From a virus, in the IMG/VR virus record IMGVR_UViG_3300017963_000016, positions 29,472-93,471 of that record: 64,000 nucleotides of DNA; one strand, written 5' to 3'. Made by a program: the position numbers and the translations under genes. Below, one piece after another: positions 9,625 to 63,714 of this stretch. How positions within the stretch are numbered: the stretch's first letter is position 1; the number at the start of each line of letters is the position of its first letter. The notes beneath the pieces are model-generated. The model was given only the letters and a program-made list of their open reading frames with translations, searched no databases and was not told the origin of the DNA.

Positions 9625-10827
9625 TTAGAAAAACCTCTCTAATGTATTTTGATTTGAATCATGTATCATCTTAGGAACTTTAGAAATATCATAATTACAA
9701 ATAAAGTATTCTTGTTTATCCTCTTGATTATTGGCACTAGTACAATATTTCACTTCTTGAGGAATTATATGCCAATTTTTTAGGTCCTTAAATTCCTCCA
9801 GGTAAAATTTACATTCTCCTCCTATTGAAGTATTGAAATGAAATGGAGATTCTTTCATTATATTAATTAAATCGTAGTGATCATCAAGAGTAAATCTGTA
9901 TAATGTGTAATATTCTTCGGTATCTGGATAAGGAGGATCGGCATATACAAATACTTGTTTAGTAAGACCTTTCTTTTGATTAAGAGCTGTAAGGAGACTT
10001 TTATAGACTTTCCTGAAATCATAGCTAGTTAGATTCACATATCTTAATCTTTCAATAGCTTGAGGGTCGATCATTGTATAGAGGCCTCCATCAGCATTAG
10101 ATATAGGCCTGGTTGTTTTTGGATTAGTTCCTCTAAAGCTAGGGAATATTCTACTTATATTCTTATAATATTCAATAGATTCTTTTGTTTGATATTCTTT
10201 CATAACTGTTGGGAGAGTTGCTCCTCTATAATTCATATTAACTTCAATAGCAGGTTTAATACAATATTCTAAGGCTTGATTTCTCAATTGTTTATTTAAA
10301 TTTTTAATCATTTTAATTGTCTTTTTAATCTCAGGCTGTAAATCTATATTAAATTTAAAAAGCTCTCTCAATTGTCTTATATTCCATTTATATAAATTAA
10401 CTAAATCAAGATTGAAATAACCTAGAGCAATTTGTTTTATTAAATCATAATCATAACTCCCTGAGCCTCCAAAACCAATTCTATTCGAATAGAAAAAAAA
10501 GAAAGCCTGTTCAATTTTATTATGAGGTATAATCTTACCTTTTTTCATATCATTGAAAATCTTTTGAGAAATCAATCCTAATACTCCCTCTTTTAATGAA
10601 TCAAACTCTTGAGGGAAGTCTCTTATTACTTCAAAATAATTAATATAATTTGAATCTAAATCATTAAAACATTCATACTTATATGCTTTCTTTTTATTTA
10701 GCTCATAAACACATGATCCGCAAAAAAGACTAATGAAATAATCGTGAAAAGGAGTATGATTAACTAATTCCTTTCTTAGCCTGTATTTTCCTCCTACCTG
10801 GTTTATTCCTGGATTGATGTATCCCAT
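9625..10827 (-). CDS. DNA adenine methyltransferase, Dam/D12 class, with large insertion
   Basis: GGKYRL, LFCGS, FNDLD, YADPPY motifs. Confidence 0.85.
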   Translation of the reverse strand: MGYINPGINQVGGKYRLRKELVNHTPFHDYFISLFCGSCVYELNKKKAYKYECFNDLDSNYINYFEVIRDFPQEFDSLKEGVLGLISQKIFNDMKKGKIIPHNKIEQAFFFFYSNRIGFGGSGSYDYDLIKQIALGYFNLDLVNLYKWNIRQLRELFKFNIDLQPEIKKTIKMIKNLNKQLRNQALEYCIKPAIEVNMNYRGATLPTVMKEYQTKESIEYYKNISRIFPSFRGTNPKTTRPISNADGGLYTMIDPQAIERLRYVNLTSYDFRKVYKSLLTALNQKKGLTKQVFVYADPPYPDTEEYYTLYRFTLDDHYDLINIMKESPFHFNTSIGGECKFYLEEFKDLKNWHIIPQEVKYCTSANNQEDKQEYFICNYDISKVPKMIHDSNQNTLERFF

Positions 10828-11554: not shown

Positions 11555-12265
11555 CTATTCATAATAATCCTCCTTATCAAACCATTTGTCTAATGTTAAA
11601 TTTAATTTCTCCCTTTCTTTCTCTAAATCATTTTGTTTATGAAAAAATGATCTTGTAATAGGAGAGAAATTATTTCCTGCTTTAAATATAGCGATTACTA
11701 AAGGGAATGTGGAGCAAGAGCCTGATTTTTTCTTTTTAGTAAGTTTAGTATAACAAGCCTCACATATTCTTTTCTTATTATAGTTTATTGATTTTTGGAT
11801 TAATACTTTACATAAGGAGCATTGGATAAGGAAATTAACTCTTCCCTTACAATATAGTATCATATAAGCTTTCATAATCCATTTATGCCAATATTTTGTA
11901 TCTGTTCTAGGAGGCAAAATCATTACTACTTTAGTATTTTCCTTTTGGCTTTCATTATAAGCTTTTTTAACCCACTCTCCCATTGCTGAATAAGGAGGAT
12001 TGAGGAATATATTATTTCCTCTCCAGGATTTTATTAACCCATTATCCTTTTTGGTAAAATGTTTTTTAGTTAAAGCATTTTCATCAGTGCTAGCAGGGTC
12101 TAAAGTAAACTTAAATTCAGGCTGTTTATTTGTATTCTGAGGAGGAAAAATTAAATTCATTTGTTTTTCTACTAATTCAAAAAACGGTTTTGGAGTTTGC
12201 CAATTATCCAATGAACTTTCATTCCTGGAGTAAAAACCAGGCTCCTCTTTTTTACTATTTAGCAT
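11555..12265 (-). CDS. Phage-type DNA N6-adenine methyltransferase with Zn-finger insert
   Basis: WQTP..FF, LDPAS...NA, DNGL..SW, FLNPPYS, PPRTDT.YWH, GRVNF; CxxC...CxxC insert. Confidence 0.9.
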   Translation of the reverse strand: MLNSKKEEPGFYSRNESSLDNWQTPKPFFELVEKQMNLIFPPQNTNKQPEFKFTLDPASTDENALTKKHFTKKDNGLIKSWRGNNIFLNPPYSAMGEWVKKAYNESQKENTKVVMILPPRTDTKYWHKWIMKAYMILYCKGRVNFLIQCSLCKVLIQKSINYNKKRICEACYTKLTKKKKSGSCSTFPLVIAIFKAGNNFSPITRSFFHKQNDLEKEREKLNLTLDKWFDKEDYYE

Positions 12266-17750: not shown

Positions 17751-18071
17751 CTATTTTATTCTTGTTAATTCTGGAAATTCTTTAAACATCTTGTTTAATC
17801 CATTTTCTAACATCTTTAAAGGAGTTAATTTAATAAAACTAAAAATACACATATCCTGAGGAATCTTAAAAATTCCTCCATAAAAGATATAACTAATAAC
17901 AGCTCTTGTAAATCTCCCTGTATATTGTTTTTTATCAGGATTATATTCTCTTAAGCATATAAAATCTCCTTTCTTAAAATCCCGATCATTTAATCTAACT
18001 TCAAAAGTTTTATTATTTAGTTCAATCTCTTCATAATATATAGGCCATACTTTTAGTTCATGCTCAGCCAT
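17751..18071 (-). CDS. DUF3850 / ASCH-PUA domain protein
   Basis: HELKVWP.YY.....KTFEVRLNDRDFKKGD..LREY.....YTGR. Confidence 0.9.
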   Translation of the reverse strand: MAEHELKVWPIYYEEIELNNKTFEVRLNDRDFKKGDFICLREYNPDKKQYTGRFTRAVISYIFYGGIFKIPQDMCIFSFIKLTPLKMLENGLNKMFKEFPELTRIK

Positions 18072-18156
18072 GATTTTTTGCCTCCTGGTTTTTATCTTTA
18101 ATTTGATTTCCGAACATCCCCTTTCTTTTATCCCCTCTTGTTTTTTTTAGCATTAT

Positions 18157-24093: not shown

Positions 24094-25949
24094 TGGCTAT
24101 TTCCTCCCTTAGCTCTTTAATTTTATTCATTTTATCTAAGGTTTCTTTTAATTCAGGAATAGTGTAGTATTTTAAATTATAAATCTTTTCACTATATCCC
24201 TTGTTTTTATTGTTATGCTTTTTAATTCTCCTCTCTGAAAGACTTAATAATTCTGTAAAAAGTTCATACTTACTAGGCTTTTTTGGTTTTGGAGAATAGT
24301 AATCTTTAAGGATTTGATATAACAGTTCTAATTTTGATTGATGTATGATAGTTGATATTCCATTAGAGCAACTTTCTATCTTTTGTCTCTCCTCATCTTT
24401 ATTCTTATATTTACCATTTAGAATTTCATTTTTCCTTTTTTCCAGATAAATAAGATAATCCTCTTCCTCTTTTATTAACCTCATTATTTCTTTTTTACCT
24501 AATGGCATGATTATCCTCCTTTTTGATTTTTATTTTATGTAAAATAATTCCAATGGATATTAGAATTATACCTAAGATAAATACTATAATCTCTGCTAAA
24601 GTATCTGGATAATTACAAAAACAATAATCATACTCATAATCTTTTGGAAAAATGGCCAATATACAAAAACAGCCAAATGTAAAGATTATATTCATGACTC
24701 CAAATAAAATTAAAATATTTCTATATTCCATTTGAATTATCAACTCCATAGATTTTATGATAATGCTCTATACTCATTTCTCCTTTAGCAACTTTTATAA
24801 AGTCTTTAAGTCTCTGAGTTATTGGAGATTTATTAGTTCCTTTACAGAATGGGCATTTCTCAACATTTATAGGAGCAAATATATATAATCTAAATTCAAT
24901 CTCCTTTTCATTCACTTTAAACCAATATAATTTACACTCAGAGCAATAATAAACCTGGTTTGAAATATTTGAGGAAATATGTTTATGTTTTTCCATTAAT
25001 CTAACATCTCCTTAATTTTATCTTCTAATCTCTCATCAATTATTTTATCTATTTTATTTAATGTTTTACACATCCTATTTAAGATATAGTCAAAACACTT
25101 ATCCTGCTTTCCTTTATTACATATATCATAAAATTTACATTTCCATTTTTTACTCATGGTAATTTCACTAAGATTTGGTTATTTTCTAATAATTTTAGCT
25201 TAATTGCTCTAGATTTATCTATAGTTGTATCAATACCAGGCATTTCATAGATTTTCTCAATAGCCTTATATACCTCAGGGTCGTAGATTCTGAGTAATCC
25301 ATTATTCTGAAATTTAACTTTCATTGTTTTTGGCCTCCTGGAATTTTATAGGCATATCTATCCTCTTTTGACTTATCAGAATATTTCTCCTCCAATGTTT
25401 TAATATTTAAAGCTAATTCATTTACATTTCTATTGAATACAAATTTAATACAAATGTTAAAATTTCCCTCTAATGAGGAGCCTGTGTATATACAAGATTC
25501 ATGCTTTAAATTAAAATAAGAGCAACAATAACAGCCTAAAAACTCAGTATGAAGTTTATTTCTTTTGAATCTTAAGGAAATTAATGAATCCACTATTATT
25601 AAGCCTATTAGCAATACTAAGATATAGCTATGAAATTCCATAAATAGCATTAAGGCTAAGATTACTATAAAAATAGTAATTACTATAAGGAAATTTTTAA
25701 TTTCTTTATTCTCTTCAAACTTCTTATTTCCATTTACCATTCTCATTATTTTATCCATTTCTTTCAGCTCCTTTTGATTTAATTACAAGAGGAAGAGCCT
25801 GGTAATCCAGGCTCTTTTCTTTCCTCTCTGAAAAAATACTCTCAATTTGGTTATTACTATGATTTTTTGATAATTGTTTACCTGAGACTTTCTTACTATA
25901 TTTAAAATAACAAATATCCAGGTATTCTTTCAATTTTTTAAATAATTTC

Positions 25950-26021
25950 ATTTCTTTCACTCCTATTGATAATTTCTTTCACTCCTATTGATAATTTCTT
26001 TCACTCCTATTGATAATTTCT
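25950..26021. repeat. Perfect 22 bp tandem repeat x3.3 (ATTTCTTTCACTCCTATTGATA)
   Basis: Copies at 25950, 25972, 25994 plus a partial copy; spans the junction of ORFs 25963..26226 and 25751..25960. Confidence 0.95.
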
Positions 26022-30417: not shown

Positions 30418-31377
30418 TTATTCCTCCTGAATAAACTCCATTAAATTAAATTTATTATTATTTACTCCATTAATTTCTAAAGCTAACTGATAAGAGAAAT
30501 ATGGAGGAACTGAATTTCCGATCATCTTATACTGATTTGTAAGGCTCCCGGATATTTTATATGAATCAGGGAATGTTTGGATTCTCATTAATTCTCTAGG
30601 TGTAAATCTCCTGAGATTTACTTTTCTTTCTTCCTCACTTTCCAGGCTTAAATTGATATTTTGATTTCTCCTGATCAATTTAAAGTCATCTTTTGTTGTT
30701 ATAGTTCTACATGGCTCATCAAGAATTTGCTCTCCATGTTTAGTATAGAAAGAATCTTTTACTTCAGAGTCTCTTGGGATAAGTCTCTTATTTAATTTAT
30801 CTGAGTATTCTTGAGGAGGCATATCCCTTAAGGCTTTTCTAACAATATTCCATTTATGAATCTTATTTCCAAATAGATCAATTCCTCCTAGTTTTGAATG
30901 AGTTGGTTTTAATCTTTTGAAAGCTCCTGAGAAAGCTCTAACTCTGAATTGAGGAATAGCATAATTAACAAGATCATACTCAGCTATTATTGGGATTGTT
31001 ATATTGAATGTTCCTCTTTTTAGTAATGGAATTATTTGGGATACATTTTCCATTATCCAATATTTAGGCTTAATTACCTCAATCCATTTAAGAAATACTT
31101 TAACTAACTCCATTCCCTTATCTTTAAGGCTCCTGAAATTTGCTATTGATAACTCCTTACATGGAGGAGAGCCTATAATGAAATCAATCTTATCTCCTAA
31201 GAAATCATAGGGATTAAGCTCTCTAATATCAGCCAATATAAACTCAGAATCAATATTATCAGTATAAGACTTTTTTACAAATTTCCAATTGTCAATAGCA
31301 TATAATATTTTAAATCCTGCTTTTATGAATCCCAATGAAAAGCCTCCCATTCCTGAAAATAAATCTATTCCATTCAT
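30418..31377 (-). CDS. DNA (cytosine-5) methyltransferase
   Basis: DLFSGMGG, GSPPC, MENV, Q.RVR, RIQTFP, IGNSVPP. Confidence 0.93.
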   Translation of the reverse strand: MNGIDLFSGMGGFSLGFIKAGFKILYAIDNWKFVKKSYTDNIDSEFILADIRELNPYDFLGDKIDFIIGSPPCKELSIANFRSLKDKGMELVKVFLKWIEVIKPKYWIMENVSQIIPLLKRGTFNITIPIIAEYDLVNYAIPQFRVRAFSGAFKRLKPTHSKLGGIDLFGNKIHKWNIVRKALRDMPPQEYSDKLNKRLIPRDSEVKDSFYTKHGEQILDEPCRTITTKDDFKLIRRNQNINLSLESEEERKVNLRRFTPRELMRIQTFPDSYKISGSLTNQYKMIGNSVPPYFSYQLALEINGVNNNKFNLMEFIQEE

Positions 31378-32912: not shown

Positions 32913-33866
32913 TTAACAATTAGCCTCCTGTCTTTGTTCTAAATATTCTTTTACACATTTTCTATTTCTTGAATCTCTTAATTCTAAAAACTCCTCCCAT
33001 GTTTTACTCCAAAATACACTCTTAAGATTAACCCATCTATGTAGTGCTTTCTGATAATGATCATCTTTATTATAAGGCATAACATAAGGGTCAATTCTGT
33101 ATTTCTTAAGAAAGTTTATTCTACTCATATCCTCTGATTCAGTTGTATTAAAACCAATTAGAACATAAAACATCATATTACCAAATTTGAATCCTGCTTT
33201 CTCTAGTATATGGAGCTTTTCCTCAATAGTAGATTCTAATCTTGGGTCGTCAAAAGCAAATCTAATTTGTTTACCAGGCCACATTTTAATTTTATAAAGT
33301 AATTTAGCATTATCATTATTTATTAATCTTATATCTAATCCCTGAGTAAAGTCAATCCTCTTTTTAGACTCTTTTAGTTTTTGTAATTCCTTAATATGAT
33401 CTTCATAAGCTAAAATATTATTATCTAATAGTAATACCTTATCTTGATCTTTTGTAAACTCACTTAGATCGGCATTCTTCTTGATAAAATTTTCTTTTTG
33501 AGGAACTATACAAAACTTACATTTTCTTATACAGCCTCTTGTAATAAAACCCATACTATAATCTAGATTGTTATATAGTGAGTAATCTGGATATAGATGT
33601 TCAATAGATTCAGGTAAATCTTTTCTAATAACATTTCCATTAGAATCTCTAAAGCCTGAGCCTCCTTTAATCATATCAGCTCTTAAATAATTATCATTAA
33701 GGTTTGGATATGTGAAAATTTTAGAGGCGTATATCTTATCATAAAAATTATGGAATAAAGGAGAATACCAGGATACAATATCTCCTTTCTGCTTATGATA
33801 AGAGCTTAATTTCATAAGAGCTAAGTTTGGTATTTTAGAATCTACATTGAATAGAGCAACTTTCAT
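32913..33866 (-). CDS. Radical SAM protein of phage type
   Basis: PNLALMKLS.YHK, PDYSLY, TRGCIRKCKFC (CX3CX2C), DNNIL, QGLDIRL, YVLIGF. Confidence 0.88.
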   Translation of the reverse strand: MKVALFNVDSKIPNLALMKLSSYHKQKGDIVSWYSPLFHNFYDKIYASKIFTYPNLNDNYLRADMIKGGSGFRDSNGNVIRKDLPESIEHLYPDYSLYNNLDYSMGFITRGCIRKCKFCIVPQKENFIKKNADLSEFTKDQDKVLLLDNNILAYEDHIKELQKLKESKKRIDFTQGLDIRLINNDNAKLLYKIKMWPGKQIRFAFDDPRLESTIEEKLHILEKAGFKFGNMMFYVLIGFNTTESEDMSRINFLKKYRIDPYVMPYNKDDHYQKALHRWVNLKSVFWSKTWEEFLELRDSRNRKCVKEYLEQRQEANC

Positions 33867-38008: not shown

Positions 38009-38215
38009 TCAAGAATCCTCAACTCCTTTATTCTCTGATTTCTTAGTATAGAGCATTACAAAATGCCTTAGGGCTGTTTTGACTAAATCAGCATTAGAAG
38101 AACAATTAATATTAAATTGATTTTTCATTACATCATTTAAAGTTATTAAAAAAGACTTACTTAGCTTTATGTTAGTAATTTCCTTTTCTTTAGTATCCTC
38201 TGTCATTTTAATCAA
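38009..38215 (-). CDS. Ribbon-helix-helix-like regulator, first gene of the long operon-like block
   Basis: TNIKLSK....LN......SSNADLVKTALRHF. Confidence 0.55.
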   Translation of the reverse strand: MIKMTEDTKEKEITNIKLSKSFLITLNDVMKNQFNINCSSNADLVKTALRHFVMLYTKKSENKGVEDS

Positions 38216-38334
38216 ATCAGAATAGATATTTTTTTTTTACAATATATGAAGAGGAGATATTCTTATTTAACTACGATCCCCTGATGGATTAGTAATGATC
38301 TTTCTGAGGATTGGAAAAAAAATCAAAGAATAAT

Positions 38335-38509
38335 AAACATCCCCTCCCTTTTATACCCTCCTGGTTTTTGGGCATTTTTTCGGGAGTCTATCCAGGAGTT
38401 GAATACAAGCTTTCTTAATCCCTCCTGTATTTACCTGTTTTTACTATCCCTGAGCCTTTTCCATTGATCTTTCAATGGCCAAAAAATCTCTACATATAAT
38501 GGGATGTTT
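38335..38509 (-). ncRNA. Predicted structured RNA (closing helix, three hairpins, possible pseudoknot), family unknown
   Basis: Complementary pairs 38335-43/38501-09, 38461-67/38472-78, 38402-09/38424-31, 38358-64/38392-98; G.U pairs work only on the minus strand. Confidence 0.5.
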
Positions 38510-38662
38510 TAACCCCCTGCGGTTTTTTCACAATTTCATACTTCATATACCAGGATAACATTCAAAATCATTAACGATTTAGCCTATAAATTAAGAAGAA
38601 TTATATTTTCAGAAATTAAATGGGATGACTTTACAGAGCTTTAGGTGTTAGCCTATGGGGAG

Positions 38663-38738
38663 ATAAAACTTCACATTTTATAAAAACTTATCAAAACTTT
38701 AATAACATATAAAAACTCAAACAAAAACATATAAAAAC
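38663..38738 (-). promoter_or_regulatory. Candidate promoter or iteron zone upstream of the long block
   Basis: AACATATAAAAAC at 38704 and 38726 (22 bp apart) plus further AAAAC tracts; reads TTTTTATAT (TATA-like) on the minus strand. Confidence 0.45.
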
Positions 38739-39010
38739 GTAAATTTTAGAGCCTGAAATTTTTGCTATGGTAAATTTATATTGAAAAAATCAAATTTGCT
38801 CTAAAAATTATGTTTAATTTGATTTTCTCTGAGATAAGGTTAATTATTAATAATATTAGTTTAAAGAGGATTGTAGGAAATTAGTTCTATTCAGCTCCCG
38901 GATAATTTTAAGGAATTTTTATCTCAAGAGATAATTTGAAAGCATTAAATCTCTTTAGCTGATTAGATTTATTTATAAAAACTATATTATAAAATTTTAA
39001 TCTGGAGTTT

Positions 39011-41304: not shown

Positions 41305-41976
41305 CTATTTAATGATAGGTTTAAATTCTTTAGAGGCTGTAGAGTAATCCCTAATTCCTCTGCTAGGAATTTTAGCAATTATCTTAAATGGATAATTTGC
41401 TTTAGCATTGGCTTTTGTTAAGATTTTATAATGATGTTGGCCTCCAATATAGTAAATATTTTTTCTTTTTGGATTGTCTTTCTTTAGATTAATTAGGAAT
41501 TGGCTCAGCCTGTCAATAAATATTTGTTTTTCAGCTTTTGTAAGAAGTTTTGGAGGATAATTATAATCAGGCATATCGTCTTCAATAGAATAAGGAATGG
41601 CTGTTAAAGGCTCTGAAATAATTATTTTAGTAAATCTCTTATCTCTAGTTATTACACTGAGGAATTGATGTGATGTTGATTGAGAGATTTTCTTTTTTCC
41701 ATATTTACAACGTGTCTTTCTAGCTGAGGCACATGGGAGAAATACAATTGGTTTTTGATTATCTGGATTATAGGCTAAGAGCTTTTTGTTAAACCAATTA
41801 GTATTAGACTCAGTTAAGAATGAGGCATTAAAGGGTTTATCAACTTCAGGTTTTTTACCTGTTTTAATATATTGAATGAGTTGAGCCTTATTCATTTTGG
41901 ATATTCCTGTTAATTTTTTCTTTTTAGCAATCTCAATAAGCTCTGATTTAAGCATATCTTCATATTTTTTAGCCAT
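41305..41976 (-). CDS. Rho-N/HeH domain fused to DUF5591 (archaeosine synthase ArcS-like) domain
   Basis: KSELIEIAKKKKLTGISKMNKAQLI; FLPCASARK, SQSTSHQF, ISEPL..IP, YNYPP. Confidence 0.7.
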   Translation of the reverse strand: MAKKYEDMLKSELIEIAKKKKLTGISKMNKAQLIQYIKTGKKPEVDKPFNASFLTESNTNWFNKKLLAYNPDNQKPIVFLPCASARKTRCKYGKKKISQSTSHQFLSVITRDKRFTKIIISEPLTAIPYSIEDDMPDYNYPPKLLTKAEKQIFIDRLSQFLINLKKDNPKRKNIYYIGGQHHYKILTKANAKANYPFKIIAKIPSRGIRDYSTASKEFKPIIK

Positions 41977-42362: not shown

Positions 42363-43211
42363 TTATTTATAATTGTTGAATATAAAATTATCTAATGGGA
42401 GAGGCTTTTTAATTCTTAATCTCATATTTGAAATTAATAACTCTTTTACCAATTGATGTTTAGAATTAATTTGATGTTTAGTTAAATTCTCATAAACATA
42501 GCAAAAAGAGAATCTTTCTTTTATAGCTTCAGAATAATTTATTGTCATAATCCATTTTGCTCTTTTAAGTTGCTCTACTAAATAGAAAAATTTTTTATGA
42601 TCAAAATTTCTATGTAAGCCTCCATTTTTCCCATAGAGATTTGATAATTTATTATTAGTATAAGGAGGATCGAAATAATAGAAAATTCCAAGATGATCTT
42701 CTAATAATTCACTATAATCTTGATTAAATAATTGGGTATTAATAAAGGGAGATTTATATTCCCTTATTTTCAGAATAGATTTAATAGTAAAATGATCTTT
42801 AAATGATTTTTCAGAATATCCACTATTTAAAGCAATTCCATTAAAACCAATTCTGCTGAGGATAAAATATCTTGAGGCCTTTATTAATGAATTAGAATCA
42901 GGATTGAAAAGCTCTTTTTTACATTTCAAAAAAAGTTCCTTTCCAGATTTATATTTCTCTTTTAGCCTTAAAATCTCCTTAATTAAATCTTCATTGGAAT
43001 TAATTAGAGTATACCAAAAACAATAGAGATTTGTATTAATATCATTCAAGATTGAGGGAATTTTATTATGCTTCCTTAATTGGAAAAAAACAGAGCCTCC
43101 TCCCAAAAATAGTTCCCTATATTCTTTCATATCTTTTGGAAAGTGATTTACTAGACTTTTAGCCATGAGGCTTTTGCCTCCAGGATACCTTAATACTGAT
43201 TTAGATTTCAT
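42363..43211 (-). CDS. DNA adenine methyltransferase, Dam/D12 class
   Basis: LRYPGGKS, ELFLGGGSV, LNDIN, FDPPY, ELLISN. Confidence 0.92.
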   Translation of the reverse strand: MKSKSVLRYPGGKSLMAKSLVNHFPKDMKEYRELFLGGGSVFFQLRKHNKIPSILNDINTNLYCFWYTLINSNEDLIKEILRLKEKYKSGKELFLKCKKELFNPDSNSLIKASRYFILSRIGFNGIALNSGYSEKSFKDHFTIKSILKIREYKSPFINTQLFNQDYSELLEDHLGIFYYFDPPYTNNKLSNLYGKNGGLHRNFDHKKFFYLVEQLKRAKWIMTINYSEAIKERFSFCYVYENLTKHQINSKHQLVKELLISNMRLRIKKPLPLDNFIFNNYK

Positions 43212-46984: not shown

Positions 46985-47338
46985 CTACCATTCTTTAAAT
47001 CCCTCTAGATTGTTTTTAAATACTCTTCTTTTCAAATATACCAAAACCTGATATAATTCTACTCCTTTTGGAGTAAGCTGAATCTGTTTTTCATGATCAT
47101 TCAGTTTAAAGATTCTGATTAGTTGCTCTTGGAGGAGAATATCTTTATTTCTAATAAACATATTCTTATTTCCGATATTATCTAATCTTGTATAGAATGA
47201 AGAGTAAGGCAAACAATTAACCCATTCCTGAGGAGGCCTTTCCTCAGGATTATTATTACTCTCATCTATCCAATCTTTAAGAATATCTAATATTTTCCAA
47301 AAGCCTATTTTTTTGAAGAGCTGATGTAATTTTTTCAT
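46985..47338 (-). CDS. Winged-helix protein
   Basis: LLQEQLIRI...IQLTPKGVELY. Confidence 0.6.
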   Translation of the reverse strand: MKKLHQLFKKIGFWKILDILKDWIDESNNNPEERPPQEWVNCLPYSSFYTRLDNIGNKNMFIRNKDILLQEQLIRIFKLNDHEKQIQLTPKGVELYQVLVYLKRRVFKNNLEGFKEW

Positions 47339-63015: not shown

Positions 63016-63714
63016 TTAAAAATTTAATCCAAAATAAATGAATAAAAAGCCTATTCCAATGCCTATTATTCCCATAATAACATCTTGGATAATATTAGGT
63101 AATGGCTCTGATATGAATTTGGTATAGGAGCCTGTTATTTGATATTTTTTATTAAACATTCGATTAGCCATTTCAAAAGTAAATTCTATAAATTCAAATA
63201 ATAAAACAAAAAGAAAAGTAATCCAGATTGATTCTTGAGAAAAAACTAGTGTCAAGAATTGGGATATACTTTTAACCTCAGGAAGAGAAATCTCAAAATC
63301 AAAAATAACTATTGTATAAAAATAGAAAGCTAAGCCTCCTGCTAAATGGCTCCATATATCTATAGCTTTCCAGGAGGCAAAAAAACTATTAGCCTCAGGC
63401 CTTTTGAATAATCCTTTCCTCATTCCTGATACTTGAATCATTACAAAAATCCAGAAAAACACATTAGCCTCTTGATAATACTTGTTTTCTGTGTTTGAAT
63501 AGAAGAAAATAATTATTCCTAATAAAACCAAGATTATGTAAAGGGAGATATACCATATATTCTTATGAGCTGAACTATGAAAAACTTTAGGCTCTCTTCT
63601 TTTTTTTTTCCTCCTGGAATTATTATTACTTTTAATTCTATTCAGCTCCTGGATAATTTTAAGAATGAATAAATGGATTATTTTCTTCCCATATATCTTG
63701 ATAAATAAATTCAA
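63016..63714 (-). CDS. Multi-TM protein with D.W.H...E..E...D motif (DUF2238/VanZ-like putative membrane hydrolase)
   Basis: DIWSHLAGG, LFEFIEF, EPLPNIIQDVIMG within TM helices. Confidence 0.55.
   Translation of the reverse strand: MNLFIKIYGKKIIHLFILKIIQELNRIKSNNNSRRKKKRREPKVFHSSAHKNIWYISLYIILVLLGIIIFFYSNTENKYYQEANVFFWIFVMIQVSGMRKGLFKRPEANSFFASWKAIDIWSHLAGGLAFYFYTIVIFDFEISLPEVKSISQFLTLVFSQESIWITFLFVLLFEFIEFTFEMANRMFNKKYQITGSYTKFISEPLPNIIQDVIMGIIGIGIGFLFIYFGLNF

Follow-up and report, generated by a model that had tools for sequence, protein, structure and literature searches.

A 175-nt stretch of non-coding DNA in the genome of a probably archaeal virus is a genuine candidate for a new virus-encoded structured small RNA, a view that its predicted fold, its base composition and the grammar of the surrounding signals support. 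The reading that we put forward, tentatively and with somewhat less than even confidence, is that this stretch forms the core of a small gene of its own, which would encode a structured non-coding RNA of ~200-260 nt. The sequence-only reading that first described the locus had left four identities side by side (antitermination leader, riboswitch, ribozyme or independent non-coding RNA), and our results lean to the last of these and away from a leader of the operon. The window analysed here is a stretch of 64,000 nucleotides corresponding to bases 29472-93471 of the IMG/VR record, and positions refer to the window unless stated otherwise (Table 1).

Table 1. Features of the candidate RNA locus and of the start of the adjoining 87-gene block, in window coordinates.
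Feature	Position	Strand	Description
First gene of block A	38009-38206	-	65 aa from ATG; small protein
A/T-only box, predicted promoter of first block-A gene	38226-38239	-	14 nt, -33 to -20 from ATG 38206
T8 run, putative terminator of the RNA	38315-38322	-	12 nt past P1 3' arm, 99 nt before next start
Core of candidate RNA	38335-38509	-	175 nt, stem-closed four-way junction, predicted
P1 3' arm (GGGAUGUUU)	38335-38343	-	retained in all longer folds
Hairpin H4	38344-38386	-	CUCCC/GGGAG plus inner stem; pair probabilities 0.97-1.0
Hairpin H3	38393-38427	-	CAGGAG/CUCCUG plus inner stem; pair probabilities 0.96-0.98; supersedes two hand-drawn helices
Hairpin H2	38452-38490	-	GAG/CUC, U-run with AAAAGG, CCAUUGA/UCAAUGG, 4-nt loop
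P1 5' arm (AAACAUCCC)	38501-38509	-	pairs with 38335-38343
Two A/T-only boxes, candidate TATA elements for the RNA	38585-38594 and 38599-38609	-	virus's own promoter grammar
Phased repeats, ~six, period ~10	38678-38738	-	units like GTTTTTATAA / GTTTTTATAT, T-tracts; Tandem Repeats Finder

Composition and predicted fold of the locus

The candidate lies in the largest gap between minus-strand ORFs of the window (38216-38907, 692 nt), as had been noted before, and neither strand of this gap contains an ORF of at least 40 aa with a start codon. Its GC content of 0.40 exceeds the intergenic mean (0.26, sd 0.046) by ~3 sd, and all 12 of the top-GC intergenic 175-nt windows of the genome are located in the same gap, in agreement with the earlier description of this site as the GC-richest intergenic one. 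GC-rich islands are a mark of RNA genes in AT-rich archaeal genomes, and finding structured RNAs in this way is an approach reportedly taken by Klein, Misulovin and Eddy in 2002. A genome search showed that the candidate is not a repeat, and the cumulative GC skew has no turning point at its position.

On the minus (gene) strand, the core has a minimum free energy (MFE) of -50.8 kcal/mol, whereas 200 dinucleotide shuffles average -34.1 kcal/mol (z -4.42) and none of the 200 folds as well, so the shuffle test that the sequence-only reading had named beforehand came out in favour of the fold. The structure favoured by these predictions is a P1-closed four-way junction, the core of which stays the same when flanks are added. 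About half of the fold that had been drawn by hand is retained in it: P1 is recovered with pair probabilities of 0.9-1.0 for eight of its nine pairs (0.52 for the outermost), and the long hairpin H2 occurs in both the MFE and the centroid structures, with inner-stem pair probabilities of 0.83-1.0. The two other hand-drawn helices, AAUACAGG/CUUGUAUU and CUCCUGG/CCAGGAG, occur in the ensemble with probabilities of only 0.02 and 0.00, respectively, and the complete hand fold reaches -38.6 kcal/mol, compared with -50.8 kcal/mol for the MFE. In the latter, CUCCUG pairs with an upstream CAGGAG and thereby closes H3, while the pairing of CUCCC with GGGAG, formerly drawn as a pseudoknot, is an ordinary helix that closes H4. 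The 3' arm of H4 contains the Shine-Dalgarno-like sequence AGGAGGG. The argument that the fold is specific to the coding strand turned out to be weak, since the plus strand yields -39.7 kcal/mol (z -2.41) and the resulting difference of 11 kcal/mol is matched by 9% of genome windows on this G-rich strand.

An RNALfold scan with z-scores, covering both strands of the whole genome, returned 138 loci of at least 100 nt, 11 of them non-coding. The candidate (z -6.19) ranks fourth among all loci and first among the non-coding ones, the next of which scores -4.88. Three coding loci surpass it with the best scores of the genome (-6.6 to -6.8); they are found at 25673-25861, 47124-47304 and -1364 to -1165, and because each scores on both strands they are probably DNA-level inverted repeats. 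If these three loci are taken as the background, ~0.4 hits this good are expected in the 10.6 kb of non-coding DNA, so that the predicted fold alone is suggestive, no more, and not decisive.

In another reading, the locus encodes no functional RNA at all and its good fold arose by chance. The GC-rich patch would then act at the level of DNA, either through binding sites where two modules meet or within an origin or a regulatory region beside the phased T-tract repeats, or it would be the decayed start of a former gene. We hold this explanation to be a real possibility, a little less likely than a separate RNA gene. The comparable or better z-scores of the three coding loci speak for it, as does the plus strand, which too folds better than its shuffles. 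The 3' part of the element in addition resembles a typical ribosome-site region of this virus, 13 of 13 nt in H4 being identical to that of the gene at 18071, and a 5-codon ORF follows. The phased T-tract repeats lie 170 nt upstream of the candidate, a similar motif, inverted, is present in another gap (genome ~25894-25953, before the PAPS-reductase-like gene), and neither a homologue nor a paralogue of the candidate was detected. However, a chance fold accounts less readily for the coincidence of the top non-coding fold with the top intergenic GC peak, for a P1-closed architecture that is stable in each context folded, and for a T8 run just past the closing stem. The GC skew, which does not turn at this position, likewise counts against the absence of an RNA. 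We favour a separate RNA gene on the strength of the shuffle z-score, the first rank among non-coding loci and the flank-stable core, and because the locus is the single intergenic GC peak, contains no ORF and no tRNA, and is not repeated.

Some further observations concern the same gap. A 28-codon ORF on the minus strand (38289-38375), which starts with ATGCC like many genes here, shares sequence with the 3' half of the fold as well as with the T8 run. Positions 38885-38907 match positions 63636-63658 directly in 22 of 23 nt, both being non-coding spots, 25 kb apart. We found two DNA sequencing runs that contain the virus and no RNA sequencing run that contains the locus. In both DNA runs a 5,699-nt Logan contig begins exactly at 38502, within the P1 5' arm, and contig coverage of 38042-38509 is almost nil; the contig break may reflect a graph branch caused by strain variation, or a filter artefact. 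No sequence variants were seen in the contigs of four DNA runs, which leave the candidate almost uncovered.

Flanking signals and the 87-gene block

The genome is divided into three parts that differ in the spacing of their genes. Block B (38908-64000) comprises 57 genes, between which the gaps have a median of 49 nt and contain 23 runs of at least seven Ts. Block A (window ~-1600 to 38215, minus strand; genome ~27870-67686) packs 87 ORFs into 39.8 kb; the gaps have a median of -2.5 nt, non-coding DNA amounts to only 650 nt, and there is not a single intergenic run of at least six Ts. It looks like one giant operon-like unit with the candidate at its head, in keeping with the ~38 kb operon-like block of ~90 coupled ORFs reported earlier. 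In the left 27.8 kb, gaps and T-runs are present again, so that block A is flanked by many short units ending in T-runs. The gene strand carries 66 runs of at least seven Ts, more than half of which (36) are found in the non-coding 11% of the genome, mostly 0-40 nt past a stop codon. Archaeal RNA polymerase terminates at oligo-T (PMC2253867, PMC8716108), and the T-runs after stop codons have the appearance that its terminators should have.

Among 27 leaderless-type genes that follow gaps, we observed a common A/T zone devoid of G between -33 and -21 relative to the ATG, which is by its position a predicted TATA box at leaderless distance. The first gene of block A, for which no significant family was found (the only Pfam hit, DUF7579, has an E-value of 0.029, below the cut-off), lacks a Shine-Dalgarno sequence, whereas genes inside the block have one, with GGAGG 8-10 nt 5' of the ATG. 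The A/T-only box in front of this first gene is one of only seven A/T-only runs in the 692-nt gap and implies a start at ~38205, right beside the ATG at 38206; block A therefore appears, as far as its sequence signals tell, to start downstream of the candidate RNA, although a further start upstream of it may exist. For the RNA itself, the two upstream A/T boxes suggest starts near 38562 and 38577, which are 50-70 nt upstream of P1, and when the fold is extended that far the overall z-score drops to -1.5. The spacings of the T8 run, both from P1 and to the next start, are those of the virus's other inter-unit T-runs. These promoter and terminator calls consist of A/T boxes and T-runs within a 74% A+T genome.

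The position of the element directly 5' of a 39.8-kb block of 87 overlapping genes, devoid of intergenic runs of six or more Ts, agrees with another reading, namely that the structure is the cis-acting 5' leader of this block and that transcription starts upstream of it. Such a leader might control read-through at the T8 run, which lies between the fold and the first gene, by acting as an attenuator, in a riboswitch-like manner or through antitermination like that of HK022 put and conAn2, or it might serve ribosome loading via its Shine-Dalgarno-like segments. The 11 runs of at least seven Ts and 113 runs of at least five Ts inside the genes of block A would fit a leader, CUCCUGG has two possible CAGGAG partners, and RNA elements heading long operons are found in bacterial mobile elements (PMC9378689, PMC8191782). 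However, the other two blocks have T-runs within genes at an equal or higher density (10 and 9 runs of at least seven Ts in 21 kb and 23 kb, respectively), and since such runs are no rarer there, special antitermination is not called for. The alternative pairing is moreover 12 kcal/mol worse, with a probability of ~0, and the first gene, unlike the block-internal ones, combines an A/T box of its own at leaderless distance with the lack of a Shine-Dalgarno sequence. We consider a leader unlikely, and prefer a separate gene to it because the T8 run follows P1 at 12 nt and the first block-A gene has its own predicted leaderless-type promoter.

A particular form of the leader reading would make the element an archaeal counterpart of put/conAn-type antitermination, either helping RNA polymerase past the T8 run and the 113 tracts of at least five Ts or gating entry into the 87-gene unit; this we regard as highly improbable. 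We know of no RNA-based antitermination in archaea.

If the candidate is a separate gene, as we prefer, the RNA would be transcribed from the same strand as the protein genes, starting from an A/T-box promoter at ~38585-38609, would fold between 38335 and 38509 as a P1-closed four-way junction, and would have its 3' end at the T8 run, after which the 87-gene block would begin at a leaderless-type promoter of its own. We picture such an RNA as acting in trans, for instance by binding a protein or serving as a decoy early in infection, and the exposed purine-rich AGGAGGG, the CUCC-type segments and the A-rich junction strands would be its working surfaces. Several of the observations given here count against a separate gene, namely the three coding loci with better z-scores, the ordinary strand asymmetry, the reliance on A/T-based signals in an A+T-rich genome and the low z-score of the extended fold, and to these is added the outcome of the homology searches, in which no homologue was found.

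Known RNA families and the search for relatives

The earlier statement that the element matches no known family stands: Rfam 15 gave no match that reached its gathering score anywhere in the window, and no family was matched at E-values up to 10 around the locus, where the best hit on the correct strand, the ylbH leader, scored 14.7 bits (E 2.6) when its gathering score is 50. The families covered by this comparison include riboswitches, ribozymes, RNase P, SRP, sno-like RNAs, GOLLD/ROOL/HEARO and others. Nothing supports a riboswitch or a ribozyme in particular. Seen as an expression platform, the locus would place the T8 run 12 nt past P1 in front of a gene that has no Shine-Dalgarno sequence and has its own predicted promoter. 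The processive antitermination RNAs of the put, EAR and conAn2 type likewise show no sequence or structure homology to the candidate in Rfam.

Other identities were considered and rejected. ARAGORN detected no tRNA gene or tmRNA in the whole window, and no tRNA-clan hit was obtained at E-values up to 10, which sets aside a tRNA, a tmRNA or a tRNA-derived attachment site. A circular RNA flanked by a bulge-helix-bulge (BHB) motif was discarded in turn, because the two ends do not form the canonical BHB, with its 3-nt bulges at a distance of 4 bp: the internal loops of the extended closing stem are symmetric (2x3 and 3x3). A permissive scan for the motif returned 94 non-specific hits, none of them convincing at the ends. 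As an antisense RNA acting in trans against the virus's 178 translation start regions, the candidate forms a best duplex of -31.2 kcal/mol, which is equalled by seven of 87 shuffled RNAs. An apparent second copy of the 3' arm at 18113-18146 falls in a small basic ORF.

H2 also contains AUUGAAAG, which we take to be the usual 8-nt 5' tag of archaeal crRNAs, and the element might on that account be a solitary mimic of a CRISPR repeat, that is, an RNA anti-CRISPR or the remnant of a mini-array. Beyond this 8-nt match nothing speaks for such a mimic, and we give it hardly any credence. A second repeat copy is absent at the locus. A pattern of 11 nt ending in ATTGAAAG, occurring twice 45-75 nt apart, was searched in 185,579 species genomes, a collection from which the host's arrays could be absent, and was found only in bacterial arrays and in one protein repeat; in the one bacterial array that was inspected, a Spirulina locus, the repeat shares only those 11 nt with the virus.

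The searches for relatives of the RNA and of its neighbourhood gave little. A 20-nt hairpin pattern had no match in IMG/VR, and blastn of 3 kb had none among GenBank phages. The covariance model R1, built from a single sequence, revealed no paralogue in the virus and nothing in a virus of 19% GC; its 13.8-bit hit in L065 was dismissed, as it lies inside a coding region. The neighbouring 149-aa protein is an ORFan among 5.8 billion proteins. Relatives of the DUF5591 protein were found at 25 metagenome loci and in the 19% GC virus, and these have at most one other gene in common with our virus and no similar RNA; the DUF5591-bearing loci are elements unrelated to it.

Relatives were found for two hallmark proteins. 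The 562-aa spike-like protein, which is encoded in the GC-richest coding region (L002:17329-19017, minus strand), has 20 relatives, which are 29-42% identical to it and are encoded by contigs as long as 81.7 kb. The 609-aa ATPase-nuclease (L002:1114-2943, minus strand), whose gene adjoins the terminal repeat at the left genome end, contains a Walker-type ATPase and, towards its C-terminus, a PD...SCK nuclease-like motif, and is by these features a candidate terminase-like protein; it has 128 relatives among 1.84 billion representatives. None of the relatives of either protein occurs in IMG/VR or among GenBank phages, and the 562-aa protein marks an undescribed virus group without IMG/VR members. 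The closest relative of the virus is a 73,259-nt metagenome contig encoding P0027 and also P0040, the closest relative of the ATPase-nuclease with 64% identity. Contigs of roughly 68.9, 63.1 and 81.7 kb encode the further relatives P0021/P0043, P0023 and P0032, respectively.

The virus, its probable host and known systems

The virus record represents a complete genome of 93,471 bp with 26.7% GC (~74% A+T) and 123-bp direct terminal repeats. Coding sequence, nearly all of it on the minus strand, makes up ~89% of the genome, the remaining 11% being non-coding. No Pfam or PHROG structural family matched its large proteins. The DUF5591 neighbour of the candidate is a member of archaea-only families and clusters, weak winged-helix matches are of the TrmB and HTH_45 type, and the 562-aa spike-like protein has, among its 20 relatives, one that is assigned to a Heimdallarchaeota MAG; on these grounds the host of the virus, as far as it can be read from the sequence, is probably archaeal, with a hint only of Asgard archaea. 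That the promoter- and terminator-like signals of the locus are of archaeal type and so fit the probable host domain is a further reason for our preference for a separate RNA gene.

The virus also encodes a DUF5591 (archaeosine-synthase-type) domain fused to a Rho_N/SAP-like N-terminus, a radical-SAM-like protein, a PAPS-reductase-like protein, one C5 methylase and three N6-adenine methylases. These scattered genes (window 41305-41976, 32913-33866, 30418-31377, 42363-43211, 9625-10827 and 11555-12265, and L003:9536-10858) possibly constitute a DNA-modification toolkit.

With the orphan small RNAs of archaea and their viruses that were found as GC islands, the candidate shares a GC island in AT-rich non-coding DNA, a stable stem-closed fold without a known family, promoter-like A/T boxes and an oligo-T end; those RNAs were confirmed by northern blots or conservation, whereas the candidate is known here from its sequence alone. 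HK022 put (PMC9378689) and conAn2 (PMC8191782) resemble it in that they are structured RNAs of mobile elements, placed in front of a very long block of genes on one strand and followed closely by a terminator-like signal. However, put consists of two stem-loops in ~70 nt and acts on bacterial RNA polymerase (PMC9378689), both systems are bacterial, the candidate has no sequence or Rfam similarity to them and, unlike in these systems, the 87-gene block seems to have a promoter downstream of the structure.

To our knowledge, almost all that is known of viruses of Asgard-type archaea comes from metagenomes, and none of these viruses has had a structured RNA assigned to it. Should the fold of the candidate be a product of chance, the locus would still contain the promoters for an operon-like block that is among the longest seen in an archaeal virus. 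Were the antitermination reading true, the element would be the first case of an archaeal virus controlling transcription by means of an RNA. If the candidate is real, a small RNA gene located between many short units and a single 87-gene block would mark the switch point of the virus's expression programme.
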